From an uncultured delta proteobacterium (GTDB lineage Bacteria; Desulfobacterota; Desulfuromonadia; Geobacterales; DSM-12255): a DNA stretch of 64,000 bases. Below the pieces are notes generated by a model. The model saw only the letters and a program-made list of their open reading frames with translations, made no database searches and was not told the origin of the DNA. The position numbers and the translations under genes are program-made. Location of the stretch: NCBI GenBank assembly GCA_963787125.1, contig CAWBBV010000006.1:1-64000 (forward strand), read 5' to 3'. Shown here one piece after another: positions 16,788 to 26,700 of the stretch (the stretch's first letter is position 1; the number at the start of each line of letters is the position of its first letter).

Positions 16788-18134
<1,347 letters not shown>

Positions 18135-18135
18135 A

Positions 18136-18302
18136 TCAAAAACCAGTTTCACGCGGATAACTTCGGATAGAATCTGATAAAAATCTGATTTTGAATCTAA
18201 CCTAATGATGATACTTGTAAAACCAAGAACCATACTTTAATCCCAAAAAGGGTTAATCCGCCTTTATCCGAAGTTATCAGATTTGATCCGCGTGCTGGTT
18301 TT
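18136..18302. repeat. ~165-bp palindromic repeat, copy 1 (intact)
   Basis: AAAACCAG-TTT-CACGCGGAT...ATCCGCGTG-CTGGTTTT; near-identical to the copies at 18680/20407 and 23541. Confidence 0.9.
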
Positions 18303-18313
18303 CGGAGGTTTTT

Positions 18314-18721
18314 ATGCTGCATGAAGATTTAACCAACAGAATTATCTGCGCTTTCTATACTGTTTACAATATTCTCGGTAGCGGTTTTCTTGAAAGGGTC
18401 TACGAAAATGCCCTTGTCATTGAGTTGACAAAAATCGGTGTATCAGTGACGCAGCAGGAGAGCGTAAAAGTCTATTATGATGGAGTGCAGGTTGGTGATT
18501 ACTATGCTGACATCGTTGTGAATGGCTTGGTTATTCTGGAATTGAAAGCTGCTGAATCTTTGAAAAATGAGCACTTTGCACAACTGACCAACTACCTGAA
18601 GGCCACTGATAAAGAAGTCGGGTTGTTGCTGAATTTCGGCAAAAAGCCGGAATTCAAGAGAATAGTTCTGGGGAATGAGTCAAAAACCAGTTTCACGCGG
18701 ATAACTTCGGATAAAATCTGA
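18314..18721 (+). CDS. GxxExxY protein (PD-(D/E)XK nuclease superfamily)
   Basis: LGSGFLERVYENAL, ADIVV..VILELKA, HFAQLTNYLKAT..GLLLNFG; its last ~13 codons lie inside repeat copy 2. Confidence 0.93.
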   Translation: MLHEDLTNRIICAFYTVYNILGSGFLERVYENALVIELTKIGVSVTQQESVKVYYDGVQVGDYYADIVVNGLVILELKAAESLKNEHFAQLTNYLKATDKEVGLLLNFGKKPEFKRIVLGNESKTSFTRITSDKI

Positions 18722-18779
18722 TAAAAATCTGATTTAGAATCTAACTCACTGAGAATACTGGTAAAACCAAGAGCCAAAA
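18680..18779. repeat. Palindromic repeat copy 2, left half
   Basis: TCAAAAACCAGTTTCACGCGGATAACTTCGGATAAAATCTGATAAAAATCTGAT...AAAACCAAGAGCCAAAA, collinear with the left half of copy 1. Confidence 0.9.
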
Positions 18780-18792
18780 TATCTGAGGTGAC

Positions 18793-19257
18793 ATGGAAGA
18801 AACAATAGGCAAGTTCCTTGAAGCGCTAAAGCTGACCGGAATGTTTCTCGATAGAGACAGAATAACGATTAATGATTTAGGATGCCCACACGCGCCCAAG
18901 GGATTACCTCATGGGAAGATGGCTATCTACACATTTCAGAAAGACGGTGTATATCTAAAAATTGGAAAAGCTGGAGCAAACAGTAAGGCTCGGTTTCAAA
19001 GCCAACACTACAGATCACATCTAGCGAAAAGCAATTTAGCCAAGAGCTTGCTCAACGACCCAGATATGGCAATAAATAAACTCGGTGAGAGCAATGTTAG
19101 TGAATGGATTAGGAGCAGCACTCGGCGGGTTGATATTCTAATTGATAGTGATACCAATATCTTCATACTTAATTTTCTTGAGGCATTCTTGCATTGCACA
19201 TTCAAGCCGAAGTACGAAGGTTTCGAAAAGCAGCGGTGTTTTGTTAACACTGAATAA
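18793..19257 (+). CDS. GIY-YIG-like nuclease domain protein
   Basis: AIYTF-x4-VYLKIGKAG, downstream R (ARFQSQH) and E (FLEAFL) in GIY-YIG order; AT-rich. Confidence 0.55.
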   Translation: MEETIGKFLEALKLTGMFLDRDRITINDLGCPHAPKGLPHGKMAIYTFQKDGVYLKIGKAGANSKARFQSQHYRSHLAKSNLAKSLLNDPDMAINKLGESNVSEWIRSSTRRVDILIDSDTNIFILNFLEAFLHCTFKPKYEGFEKQRCFVNTE

Positions 19258-19346
19258 ATATCCACTCATTCTTGCACGAATTCAATGCCAAGCCGTTTGT
19301 TTTTAGATTCTACGCGACTCAAAATATACAAATAATGAGGCACCGC

Positions 19347-20345
19347 ATGAGTGATACAAAGCTAGTAATAATTCCTTGTGGCAAGAAGAGCATTTCCAAA
19401 ATGAGGTCCGGTAAAGGGCTATTGGCTCGTGATGCATATACAGGAAATATATACAAATGGGGTGTGAGGTACGCAGATGCATGTAATGCGGACTGGGTGA
19501 TCTTCAGCCCTGAATCTGGATACATATTACCTTATACAATAATCGAAGAAGCTGCTGATTATGAAAAGCAAAAACCTCCTTTTTCTTTAGCAGAGCTGCA
19601 AGCTCAGGTAATAAACCTTAATCTGATGGATTACAAAGAAGTTATAGCTCTTGGATCTGAAATATATAGTCACGTTATCAGTCAATCATTCCTCAAGACT
19701 AAGGTCATAACTCCTTTTGTTGGATTAAGTGCGGGAAAGTATACTCAAGTGCTTAAAAATGCAGCTGAAGACGAAGTATATTCTTCATTTGAGCGTACAT
19801 ATGAAGTGGATGAGGCTAAACCTCTTGAATATGATGAAAATGATAAATTGAAGTTTCTATGGTCATACTGGAAATTACCTGTTCCAGAGAATGCATTTTC
19901 TGGGAGATTTGAAGGCCCGCAGCCAAAAAAGGATGAAGTTGAATGGGAGCATTTCAAAATCTCAGTAGCAAGAGAGTTTTGGCGTGATTCAGGACCCAAG
20001 CCTGGCGCTTGGTCTCAATTCCATGCGACAACATATCTAATAGGCAAGAAGCTGCTTATTCAGTTGTGGGATCCTATTATGTGGCTATGTGACGATGAAG
20101 GCCCAGACCCTTTTGAGGGTTATTGTGCCGGAGTAAATTTAGCCCACAATGAAGAAGGGTATTTACAGTGTTATATGCATCTTAAGGACGTTAGATGTCC
20201 GAAAGCAGAATACGAATGGGATGCTAGTTTTTGTATGCGGGAAACCGCTGAAGGCGGATATCTGTTAAGTTTGGGGAAAGTGCTTGAGCTATCTGTGCTG
20301 AATTCTAAAGAGAAAGTATCCAACCAGACAGAAGCTGCGGCCTAA
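19347..20345 (+). CDS. DUF6884-like N-terminal domain fused to an unknown C-terminal domain
   Basis: LVIIPCGKK...ARDAYTG...WVIFSPESGYI resembles DUF6884; start taken at the ATG after GAGG; AT-rich. Confidence 0.55.
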   Translation: MSDTKLVIIPCGKKSISKMRSGKGLLARDAYTGNIYKWGVRYADACNADWVIFSPESGYILPYTIIEEAADYEKQKPPFSLAELQAQVINLNLMDYKEVIALGSEIYSHVISQSFLKTKVITPFVGLSAGKYTQVLKNAAEDEVYSSFERTYEVDEAKPLEYDENDKLKFLWSYWKLPVPENAFSGRFEGPQPKKDEVEWEHFKISVAREFWRDSGPKPGAWSQFHATTYLIGKKLLIQLWDPIMWLCDDEGPDPFEGYCAGVNLAHNEEGYLQCYMHLKDVRCPKAEYEWDASFCMRETAEGGYLLSLGKVLELSVLNSKEKVSNQTEAAA

Positions 20346-20406
20346 AACCGCCGGTGTTCTGCAAAGTCGTTGCTATTGATTCTAATAGATTTCGACTAAA
20401 ACACGA

Positions 20407-20485
20407 AAGATCCAAAAACATTAATCCCAAAAAGGTTGATCCGCCTTTATCCGAATTTATCAGATTTGATCCGCGTGCTGGTTTT
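20407..20485. repeat. Palindromic repeat copy 2, right half
   Basis: TTAATCCCAAAAAGGTTGATCCGCCTTTATCCGAATTTATCAGATTTGATCCGCGTGCTGGTTTT, collinear with the right half of copy 1. Confidence 0.9.
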
Positions 20486-20515
20486 AGAGAATTCACCCCG
20501 AAAGGAGCCGAAACA

Positions 20516-22744
20516 ATGACCATCGAAACCAATGATTCCCAAGACAATCTTCTGCCCTGGTTGAAGACAAACGAACTTTTCGGGCAGTTCAGCGACGTTG
20601 TCTTGCGGGAATTTCTCGCGGAGGGGGAGTGGGCCTCCCTGCAAGCAGGCGAAACTCTCTTTCGGCAGGGCGACAGCGGCGGATTTTTCTGCATCGTCCA
20701 TTCCGGCTCCTTGCAGGTTTCCGTTACCCAAAAAAACGGGTCCGTCGATATTCTGACGACTCTTGGCCCGGGTAAGACCCTTGGTGAAATCCAGCTCCTG
20801 ATCGGCGGTACCCGCTCTGCCGATGTCTGCGCCATTGAGGAAACACGACTGCTCAAGTTCACCCGGAAAGCCTTTGATGGCCTTGCGCAGAACTCACCGG
20901 AAATACTGCACAAATTTGCAGATATAATCCGCAAAAGGCTCAGGCGCAGCCAGCTGGTCGAGATTTTGCCCCACTTGTACGGGCCACTCAATCCAGCCAT
21001 GCTCAAGTCCATTGAAGAGGCGGTTGAGTGGGTCCACGTCCCCTTTGGGCAGACTCTCTTTCGCCAGGGTGATCAGGAGTCTGACTTATATCTGCTCGTC
21101 AGCGGCCGTCTGCAGGTATGCATTCCTGACAAGATCGGTGGTGAACGGAAAGTAGCTGAAATAAAAAGAGGCGAGATCGTCGGCGAAATGGCCATGTTCA
21201 CCGGCGATAAGCGGACTGCAACTATTTATGCAATGCGTGACAGTGATCTGGTGCGCATTTCCCGGCAGGCATTCGAACGGATCATCGCCGCGCATCCCAA
21301 CATCATGATGTATTTCATCCAGTTCATTGTCAAACGGATGCAGGATATGTCCGCGGTAGCGCAGCGGCATGAAAAGAGTTTGAGCATCGCCGTTGTCCCT
21401 GGCAGCAGTGACGTCCCCCTGACAGATTTTACCAGGCGTCTGGTGGAATCATTGGCTCTGAACGGAAAAACCCTGCATCTCAGCAGCGCAAGCGTGGATC
21501 GTCACTGGGGTATCAGCGGTCTGGCCCAGGAGTCCGGCACCGACCCCAACAGCATCAGGTTGAACGCCTGGCTGGATGAGCAGGAAAGCAGCTTTACCAA
21601 CATCGTCTACGAAGCGGATCCGGCCGACACCTCCTGGACGAAGCGCTGCCTGCAGTATGCCGACCGCAGCATGATTATTGCCCGGGCAAACGCGGACCCA
21701 AAGCCGGGAGCACTGGAAACAACCCTCTTTGCTGCTGACAGCGGCGTCAACAGATTTCACCGTATCCTGGTACTTATCCACCCTGACAGTTGCAAACTCC
21801 CGACCGGAACCAGCCAGTGGCTGCGGGAGCGGCAGGTTGAGAGCCATTATCACGTTCGCCAGGGGAGTGATGCTGACATGCAACGCCTGGGGCGCATCCT
21901 GACCGGCAATGCCGTCGGCCTGGTGCTGGGAGGGGGCGGCGCACGCGGCTTTGCCCACATCGGCATCATTCGGGCTCTCAATGAGGCGGGCATCCCGATT
22001 GATATGGTCGGCGGGACCAGCATGGGGTCCATGATCGCCTCCATGTATGCCATGGGAATGGATAATCAAACCATGATTGCTGCCCAGAAGGAATTCATCA
22101 CCCATAAACCCTTTAACGAATTTTCTCTCCCCTTCATTGCCATGGTCCGGAGCAAACGCCTGGACAACATCATGGTGGACCTCTACAAAGAGGTAACCAT
22201 CGAAGACATGTGGCTGAACTTTTTCTGTATCTCCAGCAATCTGACTACCGCCGAAATGAATGTTCATCGGAAAGGAAGTCTCTGGAGAGCGGTCAGGGCA
22301 AGCACTGCACTCCCCGGAATTGTAACTCCGGTGATCGAGGACAACTGTCTGCTGGTTGATGGCGGCCTCTTCAACAATGTCCCGGCTGATATCATGAAGG
22401 GGATCTGCGGCGGTAATGTCATTATGGTCAACGTCAGCCCTGAGGAAGATCTGCTCATCTCCGACCAGTTCAAGAAAACCCCTTCTGACATGGAGGTTCT
22501 CTGGAGTCACCTCAACCCCTTCAAGGAGAAAATTACCTTTCCGCGCATTCAGGACATCATGATGCGCACTATCATGGTCGGCAGTGAACGGATGAAAAAT
22601 CAGACCAGCAAATCGGCGGATTACATCTTCTCTCCCAATCTTGACCGTTTTGGGTTACTTGGGTTTGAAGCTATTGACGATATTGTTGCAGCCGGTTACA
22701 GCTATGGGAAAGAGCGGATTAAAGAACTGCAGATGAAGGGGTAG
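20516..22744 (+). CDS. Tandem cNMP-binding domain patatin phospholipase (NTE-like)
   Basis: Two phosphate-binding cassettes (GEIQLL..TRSA, GEMAMF..KRTA); patatin GGGARG, GTSMG and DGG; start taken at the ATG after AAGGAG. Confidence 0.92.
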   Translation: MTIETNDSQDNLLPWLKTNELFGQFSDVVLREFLAEGEWASLQAGETLFRQGDSGGFFCIVHSGSLQVSVTQKNGSVDILTTLGPGKTLGEIQLLIGGTRSADVCAIEETRLLKFTRKAFDGLAQNSPEILHKFADIIRKRLRRSQLVEILPHLYGPLNPAMLKSIEEAVEWVHVPFGQTLFRQGDQESDLYLLVSGRLQVCIPDKIGGERKVAEIKRGEIVGEMAMFTGDKRTATIYAMRDSDLVRISRQAFERIIAAHPNIMMYFIQFIVKRMQDMSAVAQRHEKSLSIAVVPGSSDVPLTDFTRRLVESLALNGKTLHLSSASVDRHWGISGLAQESGTDPNSIRLNAWLDEQESSFTNIVYEADPADTSWTKRCLQYADRSMIIARANADPKPGALETTLFAADSGVNRFHRILVLIHPDSCKLPTGTSQWLRERQVESHYHVRQGSDADMQRLGRILTGNAVGLVLGGGGARGFAHIGIIRALNEAGIPIDMVGGTSMGSMIASMYAMGMDNQTMIAAQKEFITHKPFNEFSLPFIAMVRSKRLDNIMVDLYKEVTIEDMWLNFFCISSNLTTAEMNVHRKGSLWRAVRASTALPGIVTPVIEDNCLLVDGGLFNNVPADIMKGICGGNVIMVNVSPEEDLLISDQFKKTPSDMEVLWSHLNPFKEKITFPRIQDIMMRTIMVGSERMKNQTSKSADYIFSPNLDRFGLLGFEAIDDIVAAGYSYGKERIKELQMKG

Positions 22745-22748
22745 TAAT

Positions 22749-23522
22749 ATGAAAATCCGCTTTATTGGCGTCGGCTCGCAATTCTCGAGTCAGGAGCTGT
22801 ATCAGTCGAACATGGTCATTACCGCAGCCAGCGGCAAGCGGCTGCTCATCGATTGCGGCGGCGACGCGCGCTACTCTCTGACAGAATGCGGTTTGCGACC
22901 ACAAGACCTGGATGCCGTCTATATTTCCCACCTGCATGCGGACCATATCGGCGGCCTGGAGTGGCTGGCGCTCAGCACGTACTTTGCCAGTGAACCCCAG
23001 CGCCTGACTCTGTTCGGCGAAGAAAACCTGCTGGGTAGACTCTGGCACAACTCGCTGAAAGGTGGGCTCGAATGCCTGCGCACAAAACGTATGACGCTTT
23101 CGGACTATTTCGACTGTTATGCCGTGGCAGATGGAAATCAGTTTCAATGGGAAGGAATCCACTTTACCCTGATAAAAATGCTGCATATTGTCGGCACTGA
23201 CTGCAAGCATAACAGCTATGGACTGCTCATCGAACCTGCCATACCAGGCGGCCAATCGGTCTTCATCTCCACTGACGCGATTTTTCAGCCGGAACTACTA
23301 CAAAAACGCGCTGCAAAGGCTGATCTGATATTTCATGACTGTGAAACGAGTCCTTATAAAACCGGAGTCCATGCCCATTATGACGAACTTTGCACTCTGC
23401 CGGCGGCGATGAGAAAGAAGATCTGGCTGTATCATTATCAGGCGAACCATGACTACCAGCCCCATGCGGACGGCTTCCAGGGTTTTGTCGCCAAGGGCCA
23501 GGAGTTTTCGTTCAAGGAGTGA
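22749..23522 (+). CDS. Metallo-beta-lactamase-fold hydrolase, Apyc1-like cyclic nucleotide phosphodiesterase
   Basis: IDCG, HLHADHIGGLE, LWHNSLKGGL, IFHDC, VHAHYDELCTLP, IWLYHY. Confidence 0.8.
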   Translation: MKIRFIGVGSQFSSQELYQSNMVITAASGKRLLIDCGGDARYSLTECGLRPQDLDAVYISHLHADHIGGLEWLALSTYFASEPQRLTLFGEENLLGRLWHNSLKGGLECLRTKRMTLSDYFDCYAVADGNQFQWEGIHFTLIKMLHIVGTDCKHNSYGLLIEPAIPGGQSVFISTDAIFQPELLQKRAAKADLIFHDCETSPYKTGVHAHYDELCTLPAAMRKKIWLYHYQANHDYQPHADGFQGFVAKGQEFSFKE

Positions 23523-23540
23523 CATGGGTGTCCATTCAAG

Positions 23541-23703
23541 GTCAAAACCGTTTCACGCGGATAACTTTGGATACAATCTGATAAAAATCTGATTAAGAAT
23601 CTAAACCAAAGATAGTACTGGAAAATCAAGAGCAAAAAGACATTAATCCGAAAATGATTTGATCCGCCTTTATCCGAAGTTATCAGATTTTATCCGCGTG
23701 AAA
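23541..23703. repeat. Palindromic repeat copy 3 (intact)
   Basis: TTTCACGCGGATAACTTTGGATACAATCTGAT...TTATCCGAAGTTATCAGATTTTATCCGCGTGAAA. Confidence 0.9.
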
Positions 23704-23753
23704 TAGCCTTTGATTTTTCTGTGATTCCGGCTCGTCGGATTAGGGGGTAGTAC

Positions 23754-26700
23754 ATGAAAAACATGGAGCCAGCCGCTCCTCTTCCCGGTGCTTTCACCCG
23801 CCTCAATCTTGCCCAGGCCTGCGGCGCACTGAACGACAACCTGGTGAAGCTGCTGCTGGTCTTCTACCTGGTGAGCCGCTCCAGCTCCGGCCAGGCCGGC
23901 ACCATTGCCGCCATAGGCAGCGGGCTGTTCATCCTTCCATTCCTCCTCTTTTCCGCCCTGGCCGGTTCCCTGGCGGACCGGTTCCCAAAGCAGCATATCG
24001 TTGTCGCGGTAAAAAGCCTTGAGATCGGCATTACCGTTCTTGCCGTTCTTGCCGTTGCATTCGACAGCCCGGTTAGCATCTATACCGTCATATTTCTGCT
24101 CGGCAGCCACAGCGCGCTGTTCGCCCCGGCTAAATACGGCGTGGTCCCGGAACTGGTGGCACGCGATCAGCTCTCCCGCGCCAACAGCCTCCTGGAGATG
24201 GCCTCCTATCTTGGCATCATCGGCGGCACAGCGCTGGCGCCGATAATGCTGTACTTATCCGGTGGTCACTACACTCTTACGCTGTCTGCAGGCATTGTCA
24301 TAGCACTGGCCGGCCTGGCTTTTGCCCGCGCCGTGCCGCTGACTCCAGTTGCCGATGCCGTCCGTCCGCTTGCCTGGCATCCCGGGGTTTACTGGCAAAC
24401 CCTCAGAGGGTTGCGCAGCGATGGCTACCTGCTCCTGGCCATCATCGGCGCCGCCTACTTCCTCTTCATCGCCGCCTTTTGCCAGCTGAACCTGTTACCC
24501 TATGGCATGCGCTATCTGGGACTGTCCGAAGTGGGAAGCGGCTATCTCTTCTTTGCCGCAGCTGTAGGCATCGGCGCCGGATCGCTCCTGGCCGGCCATC
24601 TCTCCGGCCGGGATGTGGAATTCGGCATAGTACCCGTCGGCGCCATCGGCCTGACAACGGCTGCCTTTCTTCTCAATGCAGCACCCGCCAGCCTGTACAT
24701 AATTCTCCCGCTGATCACCCTCTTCGGAGTCAGCGCCGGCCTGTTCATTGTACCGCTGCAGGCATTCATCCAGCTCCGGGCACCGGCCGGCCACCGAGGA
24801 GCGATCCTGGCGACTGCTTCGTTCCTCAGCTGGGTCGGGGTGCTGCTCGCCTCGGGCCTGCTCTGGCTGCTATCCGGACCGCTGGGAGTATCTCCCGGCA
24901 GTGCGTTCTCAATCCTGGGGATTATTACCCTCATTCTCTCCCTGATAACCCTTTGGATTCTCCCCGATTTCCTGCTCCGCTTCATTGCCCTGTTTACCAT
25001 GCGTTTCCTCTATCGCCTGGAGATAATCGGTGACCAGCGGGTTCCGCTCGAAGGAGGGGCACTACTTGTGGCCAATCACGTCTCCTGGATGGACGCGCTG
25101 CTGCTCCTTGCTACCCAGCAGAGGCGCATCCGCTTCGTCATGGAAAAAGAGATTTATGATACGCCGCTCCTCAAACAGCTCTGCAAACTTATGCAGGTGA
25201 TCCCGGTATCCGCCAAAGGGCGAAAGAAGGAGCTGCTGGAGTTTATCACCACTTCCCGCCGGGCACTTGAGGACGGCTACCTGGTCTGCATCTTCGCCGA
25301 AGGGGAGGTTACCCGTAACGGCATGCTCAACCGCTTCAAAGGGGGCTTCGAGCGGATTGTCAAGGGGACGGATATCCCGGTGATTCCGGTGTATATCGGC
25401 GGCGCCTGGGGGAGCATTTTTTCCTATTCCCATGGCAAGCTCCTCTCCCGTTTCCCCACCCTCCCCCCTATCGGGTAACGGTCCTCTTCGGCGACTCCCT
25501 GCCGGCAACATGCTCGGCCCACGATGCCCGCCGCGCGGTGATGGAGCTCTCCAGCAAATGGTTCGACGCCCGCAAACCACGGCGCCGCCCCCTGGGTGAG
25601 CTGTTCGCCAAAACGGCCCGGGAGAACTGGGGGCGTTTTGCCATGAGCGACACCACCGGCAAGGAATTAACCTATGGCAAGGCTCTGATTGGTGCCGTGG
25701 CCCTGGCGCGCAAGCTTAAATTGCTGACTGCTGGTGAGGAAATGGTCGGCGTCTGCCTGCCGACGACGGTCGGCGGCGCCCTGGTGAATATTGCCCTGAC
25801 CATGAACGGCACCGTACCGGTTAACCTGAACTACACCGCTTCGGCCGAGGGGATCCGCTCGGCTGTCGATCAGTGCGGCATCACCACGGTTATCACCTCC
25901 CGCGCCTTTCTGGAGAAGCTCGGCACTCTGCCCGAATTCCCCATCACCCTCTACGCGGAGGATCTGTTAGGGAACCTGACCGCCGCCGAAAAGCGCTGCG
26001 CTTTCCTTGTTGCCCGCTTCCTGCCACTCTCCCGGTTTGCCTGTCCGACCGGCTTTACTGCCGACCGCCTCGCCACGGTCATCTTCTCCTCCGGCAGCAC
26101 CGGAGAGCCCAAGGGGGTCATGCTCTCCCACCATAACATCACCTCCAATCTGGAGGCGCTGCGCATGGTCTTCCGCATAACCCGGCGGGATAATCTCTGC
26201 TCTGCCCTGCCGTTCTTCCATTCACTCGGCTTTACCGGCACGCTCTGGTTGCCACTGGTATCAGGCTTCTCCGCTTCCTATCATACCAACCCGCTGGATG
26301 GCGAGACGATTGCCACTGTGGTACGAGAGCGACAATCGACCCTGTTGTTCGCCACCCCCACCTTCCTGCTGGCCTATCTGCGTCGGGCAAAGGCCGAAGA
26401 TTTCCGGTCATTGAGGCTTGTAATGACCGGTGCCGAGAAGCTGAAAACCAAGTTGGCTGACACCTACCAAGAACGGTTCGGCATCCGCCCAATGGAAGGG
26501 TATGGTGCCACCGAACTGTCGCCGCTGATCTCCCTGTCGGTTCCTGATGTTGAGATCGACGGTGTACGCCAGACCGGATCCGTTGAGGGGAGCGTCGGGC
26601 TGCCGATACCCGGAGTGGTCGTGAAGGTTGTCGATCCCGAGAGCGGTGCAGCCCTGCCGGAGGGGCAGAGCGGCCTGATCATGGTGAAGGGGCCGAATCT

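Follow-up and report, generated by a model that had tools for sequence, protein, structure and literature searches.

An integron cassette-array fragment within the loop region of a GxxExxY-linked palindrome: two kinds of mobile DNA probably nested in one operon spacer of a Geobacterales genome

The genome of an uncultured delta proteobacterium (NCBI GenBank assembly GCA_963787125.1; GTDB lineage Desulfobacterota, Desulfuromonadia, Geobacterales, DSM-12255) carries three neighbouring copies of a palindromic repeat on contig CAWBBV010000006.1, one of which is split at its loop by two genes of foreign appearance, here called the cargo. The window analysed is the stretch of 64,000 nucleotides at positions 1 to 64,000 of that contig, and the locus in question occupies about 18,136 to 20,485. 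Next to the split copy stands a gene of the GxxExxY family, which encodes a small PD-(D/E)XK nuclease. The question raised by this locus is whether palindrome and nuclease together form a device that captures passenger genes, as an initial annotation made from the sequence alone had proposed, or whether the foreign genes arrived by another route. The evidence presented here indicates that mobile DNA of two unrelated kinds lies one inside the other in a single operon spacer, and that the second of these, a fragment of an integron cassette array, probably landed illegitimately in the centre of a palindrome belonging to the first. The palindromes and the nuclease gene are the following.

18124..18302, no strand: palindrome copy 1, intact (repeat search, blastn); each arm a phased array of C(G/T)GATAA-like units of ~10-11 bp, pairing weak in the centre
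18314..18721, plus strand: GxxExxY protein, a small PD-(D/E)XK nuclease, with copy 1's right arm on one side and copy 2's left arm on the other (PF13366, E 2.2e-39; TIGR04256, E 8.4e-39)
18668..18779, no strand: palindrome copy 2, left arm and left part of the centre (88% to copy 1 over 109 nt)
18769..18779, no strand: left 11-mer of the duplicated loop stretch, read directly; same loop segment as 20407-20417
20407..20485, no strand: palindrome copy 2, right part of the centre, which opens with the second 11-mer, and right arm (93-94% to copy 1)
23528..23708, no strand: palindrome copy 3, intact, more diverged, in the next intergenic spacer (repeat search, blastn)

The three copies were confirmed by repeat search and blastn at the places where the initial annotation had put them, with the correction that the left half of copy 2 starts earlier, at about 18668. 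The repeats comprise a left-part family of 109 nt (18124-18232; 18668-18776, 88%; 23528-23636, 72%) and a right-part family of 60 nt (18243-18302; 20426-20485, 93%; 23649-23708, 77%); the arms are 75-83% complementary and the palindrome measures about 165 bp. When blastn was run against the whole 4.2-Mb genome, copy 1 matched the left part of copy 2 with an E value of 1.6e-33, the right part with 3.2e-23, and copy 3 with 1.4e-40, all far beyond chance. Folded as single-stranded DNA, copies 1 and 3 each form a long hairpin (-29.5 kcal/mol, z -5.6, and -25.0 kcal/mol, z -5.2, respectively, with 0 of 200 shuffled sequences as good in either case) whose central ~60-85 nt are weakly paired, and the break in copy 2, between 18779 and 20407, maps into that centre. 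The intervening DNA is 1,627 bp long and bears two plus-strand open reading frames (ORFs), with a guanine plus cytosine (GC) fraction of 0.36-0.44 compared with 0.50-0.62 in the flanking genes, in keeping with the AT-rich insert of about 1.6 kb with two same-strand genes that had been described. Further members of this palindrome family were found by blastn at C7:238196-238310 (with a short loop) and C6:280689-280747 (a half copy) in the same genome, and Rfam gave no family match in 17900-23900 at E values up to 1.

The near-duplicate 11-mer that had been noticed at the two junctions (18769-18779 and 20407-20417) is identical at 10 of 11 positions, and both versions align to one and the same loop segment of copies 1 and 3; thus, 11 bp of the loop are truly duplicated. 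It might be argued that the two halves are independently truncated palindromes flanking a cassette fragment that was already present, rather than one split copy, as orphan single arms occur in this genome and its relatives and palindromes insert readily into spacers. However, the halves are complementary and correctly ordered and oriented, each has the other as its best partner once copy 1 is set aside (identity to copy 1, 88% and 93-94%), and they overlap by exactly the same 11 loop bases, all of which make a separate origin of the two halves very unlikely.

The split copy lies within an operon, of which three genes border or follow the inserted DNA.

16788..18134, plus strand: response-regulator receiver and class III nucleotide cyclase (Pfam Response_reg, E 4.9e-27; Guanylate_cyc, E 2.2e-14); left border of the inserted block
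20516..22744, plus strand: two cyclic nucleoside monophosphate (cNMP)-binding domains, a neuropathy target esterase (NTE) P-loop-like domain and a patatin phospholipase domain (Pfam); right border of the inserted block
22749..23522, plus strand: metallo-beta-lactamase fold protein, Apyc1-like (PF23023, 109.9 bits vs cut-off 50)

The initial annotation had suggested that orthologous cyclase-patatin loci might reveal the empty state of this spacer, and such a state was indeed found in a genome of the same genus (G004, contig C7), in which the 3' end of the cyclase gene (86% nt identity) and the 5' end of the patatin-domain gene (82%) are separated by only 41 bp, containing no palindrome, no GxxExxY gene and no cargo. 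Thus, the block of 2.35 kb at about 18136-20485 is inserted DNA. The patatin-domain protein is 87% identical to its G004 orthologue, and the metallo-beta-lactamase gene is also kept in G004, a single match of 83.5% nt identity spanning the patatin 3' end and this gene; synteny stops thereafter, which leaves palindrome copy 3 without an empty-site comparator. A possible duplication of the cyclase 3' end ahead of palindrome copy 2 was judged by eye not to be significant and was dropped from consideration.

The content of the 1,627-bp insertion was then compared with other genomes and with metagenome contigs, and its features are listed below.

18780..20406, plus strand: cargo, an integron cassette-array fragment of 1,627 bp (GC; homology to metagenome contig L084, genome G213 and a contig of run X2)
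18793..19257, plus strand: cargo gene 1, 154 aa, probably of the GIY-YIG superfamily (ESM Atlas neighbours)
19286..19297, plus strand: possible relic of an attC 3' end between the cargo genes, of low confidence (12-nt exact match to the 3' end of the G213 attC)
19347..20345, plus strand: cargo gene 2, 332 aa, whose N-terminal domain resembles DUF6884 (PF21818, 28.2 bits, under the cut-off of 30)
20304..20373, plus strand: integron attC site that takes in the stop codon of cargo gene 2, stem apparently degraded (nhmmer family profile, E 3.5e-20, the window copy being one of the seeds)
20361..20406, plus strand: post-attC stretch, ~45 nt past the G|TT crossover, most like the start of the next G213 cassette

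The element at 20304-20373 is an imperfect palindrome of 60-70 nt that opens with CCAAC and closes with CGTTGC. An nhmmer profile made from the window copy and four other copies from this genome (G000) yielded 10 matches in the genome, including C4:151305-151875 and C23:105078-105143, and two integron integrase genes (intI) are present at C4:161732-162667 (340.9 bits) and C23:106715-107650 (337.8 bits), both above the TIGR02249 cut-off of 265. Two matches of the family are located ~10 kb away on the cassette side of the C4 intI gene and one is located 1.6 kb from the C23 intI gene, while a crude scan for attC sites found 8 in C4:130000-161700 compared with 0-3 per strand in 12 control regions. 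The recurrence of the family beside two intI genes, together with the cluster of attC-like hairpins on C4, therefore identifies the element as an attC site. Contigs of runs X3 and X4 that carry the attC family stop matching the window at 20319-20321 and 20360-20372, in the manner of cassette borders. The bottom strand of the window copy folds weakly (-8.3 kcal/mol, z -0.8, 44 of 200 shuffled sequences as good), and its two stem halves resemble different members of the family, as in a decayed site. No integron integrase scored above the cut-off in G213 or G004, which are 85% and 90% complete, respectively, so that this result is no proof of absence.

Two other features of the resident integron arrays were noted. 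At C23:104648-105143 (locus L082, 1149-1451), an attC site of the same family as that of the window, 1.6 kb away from intI, is directly followed by group II intron domains (RF02001, 154 bits; RF01998, 54 bits), the arrangement typical of group IIC introns that target attC sites. The genome also contains seven Y1_Tnp (IS200/RAYT-like) matches in open frames of 105-343 aa, two of which (C4:125387 and C23:102651) are near the two integron arrays.

The other contexts of the cargo genes agree with an origin in cassette arrays. Genome G213, of another family of the order, carries the same gene pair on its contig C40 (gene 1 at 39% aa identity, gene 2 at 88%), with the same attC behind gene 2 (nhmmer E 1.7e-23, for a copy that had not been used as a seed) and other small genes beyond it, a cassette-like context; metagenome contig L084 carries cargo gene 1 at 93% nt identity followed by the start of gene 2. 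Cargo gene 1 has homologues in 5 of the 239 genomes examined from the order, as well as in 8 metagenome loci with identities of 48-95%, and cargo gene 2 has them in 3 of the 239 genomes, G213 included. A contig scan with cargo gene 1 recovered only two Paenibacillaceae loci, 48% identical and uninformative for borders, and no paralogue of gene 1 or of gene 2 turned up in the resident integron arrays. Cargo gene 1 has no match in Pfam, NCBIfam or PADLOC; its nearest ESM Atlas clusters (0.96-0.97), some of them named GIY-YIG nuclease family, offer a lead from language-model neighbours that it probably encodes a GIY-YIG-superfamily protein. Cargo gene 2 gave a weak match to PADLOC PDC-M57A (21.2 bits), and its ESM Atlas neighbours were DUF6884 clusters (0.84-0.87). 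The idea that the two genes were acquired in a cassette-like manner without an integrase thus found no support, because the attC at the end of the cargo is of the same family as the sites next to both intI genes of the genome, and the same gene pair, with attC and in cassette-like context, recurs in G213 and L084.

How the cargo came to lie in the palindrome is a separate matter, on which the junctions bear. A clean integrase product starts with the TT of G|TT and ends with the G of the attC site, and integrase reactions make no target duplication. At the left junction of the cargo there is no G|TT, and the TTGAAC that starts the cassette in L084 and G213 is missing; in L084 another hairpin element, with GTTGAAC at its end, stands ahead of the pair, and the match to the window begins only at 18785, as does that of the run X2 contig, which has 316 unmatched bases upstream. 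At the right end, the cargo overshoots the G|TT crossover of its attC by ~45 nt. This post-attC stretch resembles the next cassette of G213 (local alignment score 26 vs 15.4 +/- 3.1, 5 of 500 shuffled sequences as good) better than it does the palindrome loop (16 of 300 and 89 of 300 as good), and its interpretation as a diverged loop was abandoned on account of this weak likeness. Because the borders are off G|TT, the cargo is classed as a fragment of a cassette array and not as an intact inserted cassette; and because the left end falls short of the first cassette bases while the right end overshoots, the landing was most likely not a precise integrase reaction.

An alternative is that IntI inserted a circle of at least two cassettes at a loose GWT site of the 'attG' type in the palindrome centre, and that deletions later took away the initial bases of the cassette and most of the cassette behind it. 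Insertion of cassettes outside integrons at sites with only a GWT consensus is known, according to a preprint (bioRxiv 10.1101/2022.09.11.507474). The genome has two IntI genes above the TIGR02249 cut-off, the cargo attC belongs to the resident family, and the left border is within ~5-11 nt of the cassette start in L084. Nevertheless, G|TT is found at neither junction, 11 bp are duplicated although integrase insertion duplicates no target, two extra deletions are required, and no paralogue of a cargo gene exists in the genome's own arrays; integrase-mediated insertion followed by trimming is accordingly judged improbable. A model in which an excised cassette circle integrated by means of the 11-bp homology, so that the 45 nt behind the attC would be the leader of the cassette itself, was rejected, as the cassette in L084 and G213 starts with TTGAAC, unlike the post-attC sequence of the window, and no contig of runs X1-X4 joins ~20406-20417 back to ~18780. 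These four runs are of DNA, with shares of 0.05-0.12, and no RNA run was found. Their contigs include many empty palindromes of the family, relatives of GxxExxY and of the attC, and one contig with cargo; none bridges palindrome and cargo, the parts that they do not cover being uninformative.

Illegitimate landing of a cassette-array fragment is thus the preferred reading, for which we infer the following order of events. A palindrome-GxxExxY-palindrome block would first have entered the 41-bp cyclase-patatin spacer. Later, a 1.63-kb piece of a cassette array, made up of the GIY-YIG-like and DUF6884-like genes together with their attC, plus ~45 nt from the cassette that followed, would have landed in the unpaired centre of the second palindrome and duplicated 11 bp of its loop; the source of this piece would most likely be foreign DNA of the same integron pool. 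The landing may have involved a staggered break in the single-stranded tip of a hairpin or cruciform, with filling-in of the break and its joining to a stray piece of DNA, or else a replication template switch at the hairpin that used micro-homology. The palindrome centre is a tolerated landing place, because it is non-coding and within an operon spacer and the cargo is in the orientation of transcription; it is probably also fragile.

The other partner in the proposed capture system, the GxxExxY gene, is closely linked to palindromes well beyond the window. All six GxxExxY genes of the genome are flanked by a palindrome family of their own, the six families having 2-37 blast matches each. At C24 and C1 the gene sits between palindrome arms, and in the window and at C7 between whole palindromes, so that at least two genes of the genome have the latter arrangement. 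The palindrome family of the window was detected in 72 of 239 genomes of the order (G000 included), a figure that denotes presence only and not copy number, as three candidates were scored per genome. In all nine genomes with a GxxExxY orthologue of at least 75% aa identity (G124, G189, G008, G012, G181, G203, G004, G097 and G196) the window-type palindrome is present, a proportion which, set against 72 of 239, is not a clean statistic, the genomes being related; conversely, 62 of the 72 palindrome-bearing genomes have no GxxExxY orthologue at this level of identity. The window-type gene is always found in the order right arm, gene, left arm between palindromes, in five genomes (that of the window, G004, G008, G196 and G124). 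Gene-less palindromes occupy ordinary operon spacers, such as those of trpD-C-B, flpD/Fe-S, electron transfer flavoprotein (ETF) genes and a cus efflux operon; in the last of these, GxxExxY follows a HlyD-family (CusB-like) gene.

GxxExxY genes are present in 182 of 239 genomes of the order and in 40 of 121 sampled genomes of the phylum. In 30 phylum loci taken from 30 genomes, of which 29 had enough flanking sequence, inverted repeats with scores of at least 16 flank the gene in 24 of the 29, compared with scores of at most 12 in controls 900 bp away in the same loci. The arms consist of two to four tandem units of 8-11 bp, for example CACAGAGG-type or CGCGGAT-type; they begin 15-50 bp from the GxxExxY start codon and overlap the stop region. 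The seven Y1_Tnp matches of the genome all lie farther than 1.5 kb from the arms of the six families, and no transposase was found in or beside any palindrome copy examined. The palindrome is described here as an intergenic element like repetitive extragenic palindromes (REP elements) and the hairpins that they form (REPINs), with conserved outer arms of ~10-bp phased units and a variable centre, and as the cognate repeat of one subfamily of GxxExxY PD-(D/E)XK nucleases. This link between GxxExxY genes and palindromes is real, widespread and poorly described: a full-text literature search aimed at the GxxExxY family found no account of it, the PDF supplements of Geobacter genome papers being outside the scope of that search.

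Several arrangements of these genes in the genome deserve mention in their own right. At C7:230308-233781 (locus L079), 17 arm matches of a CCACGGAT-type palindrome form a tandem array with a period of ~130 bp, surrounding one GxxExxY gene and a HepT/MNT-like toxin-antitoxin pair. The GxxExxY gene at C8:18729-19076 has an in-frame TAG and is probably a pseudogene, still flanked by its CACGAA-type palindrome family. The sequences at C27:30019-30182 and C5:138680-138843 are identical, flanks included, and near contig ends; they are probably one locus assembled twice, and hence the copy counts of the C24-type family are slightly inflated.

The GxxExxY protein of the window belongs to its family by profile match (TIGR04256, 132.5 bits vs cut-off 35; PF13366, 134.9 bits vs cut-off 22). 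Residues G24, E27, Y30, D66, E76 and K78 are invariant in 19 GxxExxY sequences, and the catalytic D-E-K is intact. That the repeat itself encodes the last codons of the gene, as had been stated, is correct: the last ~14-17 codons of the ORF read into the left arm of copy 2, and the resulting tail is outside the family domain. In the structural model (predicted local distance difference test (pLDDT) score 88.9), residues 125-135 have pLDDT values under 50, the tail being disordered in the model. The best fold matches of the model were Cas4 SSO0001, lambda exonuclease and Hjc, with template modelling (TM) scores of 0.4-0.54, which amounts to a generic minimal PD-(D/E)XK core; a sequence search against solved structures found nothing useful for this protein or for the two cargo proteins. 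To our knowledge, GxxExxY genes have no known function. A 2012 survey of the superfamily lists PDDEXK_3 as 'Unknown'.

With these facts in hand, the hypothesis that the hairpin loop is an insertion site for passenger genes can be examined. Among relatives, 29 arm pairs in 25 loci were inspected: in 28 of them the arms are 10-65 nt apart, and in the remaining pair 188 nt, a space occupied by a nested palindrome; no second loop with foreign genes was found among them. Elsewhere in this genome, a left arm and a right arm are separated by the length of a gene only where GxxExxY itself lies between them. The nested palindrome, in G003 (C34; locus L023, 1291-1566), is of a different family, with CGCGACGA-type arms, and sits in the centre of a window-type palindrome. 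In the C24-type family the loops are hypervariable and cannot be aligned between copies, and the outer arms are conserved. Thus, the part of the original proposal that stands is that palindrome centres take inserts (GxxExxY at C24 and C1, a nested palindrome in G003); recurrent capture of foreign genes was not borne out, there being no other filled copy among the 29 arm pairs of relatives or in the other families of this genome. Also in favour of a capture site are selfish modules that stand beside these palindromes in several genomes; in G175 (C26; locus L067, 418-1700) a PIN/Phd toxin-antitoxin pair lies between two window-type palindromes, each followed by the same ~35-nt flank, and the right arm of the first copy has been replaced by a palindrome of another family (CGCCGA-type); it looks like an insertion with a long duplicated target.

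The strongest form of the capture hypothesis holds that GxxExxY recognises its cognate palindrome and cuts the unpaired centre with a stagger, so that the hairpins are dedicated landing pads for passenger genes. The 10-of-11 duplication of loop bases at the junctions, the position of GxxExxY genes between arms at C24, at C1 and in most of the 29 phylum loci, the foreign palindrome nested in the G003 loop, the hypervariable C24-type loops between conserved outer arms, the occurrence of one gene per repeat family in the genome and the intact catalytic D-E-K of the nuclease would all fit such a function. On the other hand, the cargo carries its own recombination site from an integron system, foreign genes occupy no second loop among the 29 arm pairs of relatives or in this genome's families, the window-type nuclease gene is outside the palindromes and not in a loop, 62 of the 72 palindrome-bearing genomes lack an orthologue that reaches 75% aa identity, and the solved-structure search found nothing for the GxxExxY family; a dedicated landing pad therefore seems decidedly unlikely. 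As for GxxExxY being the cognate enzyme of the palindrome, the linkage itself held up and was seen across genomes as anticipated (6 of 6 genes, 24 of 29 phylum loci, 9 of 9 orthologue-bearing genomes), but nothing ties the nuclease to this particular insertion. A broader conjecture, that GxxExxY genes and their family-specific phased-unit palindromes constitute a widespread undescribed selfish element, an analogue of REPINs with their REP-associated tyrosine transposases (RAYTs) that is driven by a PD-(D/E)XK nuclease whose staggered cuts in the centre of the extruded hairpin would create recurrent landing pads for the nuclease gene, for other palindromes and, now and then, for stray DNA such as this cassette-array fragment, would, if true, explain the 11-bp duplication; it is regarded as a long shot.

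Several considerations weigh against the sequence of events favoured here, in which a cassette-array fragment landed illegitimately in a palindrome already present. The cyclase-patatin operon was found in only 1 of 40 relatives, G004, so that the empty-site comparison is that of a single genome, and the G004 spacer is not alignable with that of the window, so that the borders given for the first insertion are approximate. The likeness of the 45 post-attC nucleotides to G213 is moderate and includes the start of the conserved R' box. The inferred landing mechanism rests on one event with flanks that have diverged by ~6-12%; the junctions may have eroded after a precise integrase reaction, and a dedicated enzyme making staggered cuts would explain the 11-bp duplication, as its footprint, just as well. 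In several genomes, selfish modules (HepT/MNT, HipA, PIN/Phd and TacA/GNAT) adjoin palindromes of this kind, and the duplication of a palindrome together with its 35-nt flank in G175 hints that palindromes may do more than sit passively.

The composite locus resembles several known systems in part. REP and REPIN elements with RAYT transposases (REPtrons) are short GC-rich hairpins whose associated gene is a HUH/Y1 transposase. The GxxExxY palindromes share with them the occurrence of family-specific intergenic palindromes in operon spacers, with one gene per family and many gene-less copies, and the framing of the associated gene by the repeat in inverted orientation, but differ in that the gene encodes a PD-(D/E)XK nuclease of ~120 aa and the arms consist of phased units of 8-11 bp. 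By analogy, the GxxExxY-palindrome system would at most work like REP/REPIN-RAYT systems without being one of them, and its mobilisation is only putative. Long palindromes are also subject to cleavage at hairpin or cruciform tips (fragility of the SbcCD type), and the break described here, in the unpaired centre of a ~165-bp palindrome, is similarly placed; a nuclease may have taken part in it. Nested insertions in miniature inverted-repeat transposable elements (MITEs) and other small repeats likewise place foreign mobile DNA within a short inverted-arm repeat that has intact copies close by; the present locus differs in that no transposase-bearing parent was found among the copies examined and in a cargo that lacks terminal inverted repeats and is a cassette fragment. 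In the intervening sequences (IVS) of 23S rRNA genes, such as the Coxiella IVS with S23p, a small selfish gene within long-stem inverted repeats is similarly placed in a transcribed unit, according to a published account (PMC4990558), whereas here the host is an mRNA operon spacer and the gene is of a different family. A homing endonuclease gene, whose nuclease cuts the empty allele so that repair copies the gene in, is a further comparison, to which the constant order of right arm, gene and left arm in five genomes is relevant.

A close parallel to the cargo is found in cassettes that lie outside integrons, as single attC sites (SALIN) or clusters of attC sites (CALIN) lacking integron-integrases or at attG sites. 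Such cassettes insert at GWT-consensus sites and are expressed when behind host promoters, as reported in the preprint cited above (10.1101/2022.09.11.507474), and the cargo shares with them ORFs followed by an attC of the genome's integron family, the lack of an integrase nearby and the orientation of transcription within a host operon. It departs from them in that the borders are off G|TT, with the left truncated and the right overshooting by ~45 nt, the attC stem appears degraded, 11 bp of the target are duplicated, and the target is the centre of a palindromic repeat. Cassettes outside integrons and REP-like repeats are kinds of element already known; what is new is their combination, the non-canonical junctions and the rule that links GxxExxY genes with palindromes.

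As to the operon that received these elements, its genes (16788-23522) look, from their predicted domains, like a cyclic-nucleotide-gated phospholipase accompanied by its own phosphodiesterase, and the cNMP-binding domains of the patatin-domain protein also match PADLOC models of Pycsar effectors (PycTIR, TIR-type).

The foreign genes of the window need no new capture machinery, because the cargo is a stray piece of an integron array; the locus indicates that DNA from cassettes can become established in a host operon otherwise than through attI, attC or a clean attG event, and that it can find a safe harbour in the middle of a palindromic repeat. The general rule to emerge is that GxxExxY genes are almost always framed by family-specific inverted repeats of phased 8-11-bp units, and that palindromes belonging to the same family, but with no gene, are scattered among operon spacers. 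If these prove to be nuclease-driven elements comparable to REPINs, a testable function would be available for a large family listed as 'unknown', and a new source of structure in operon spacers would have been recognised.

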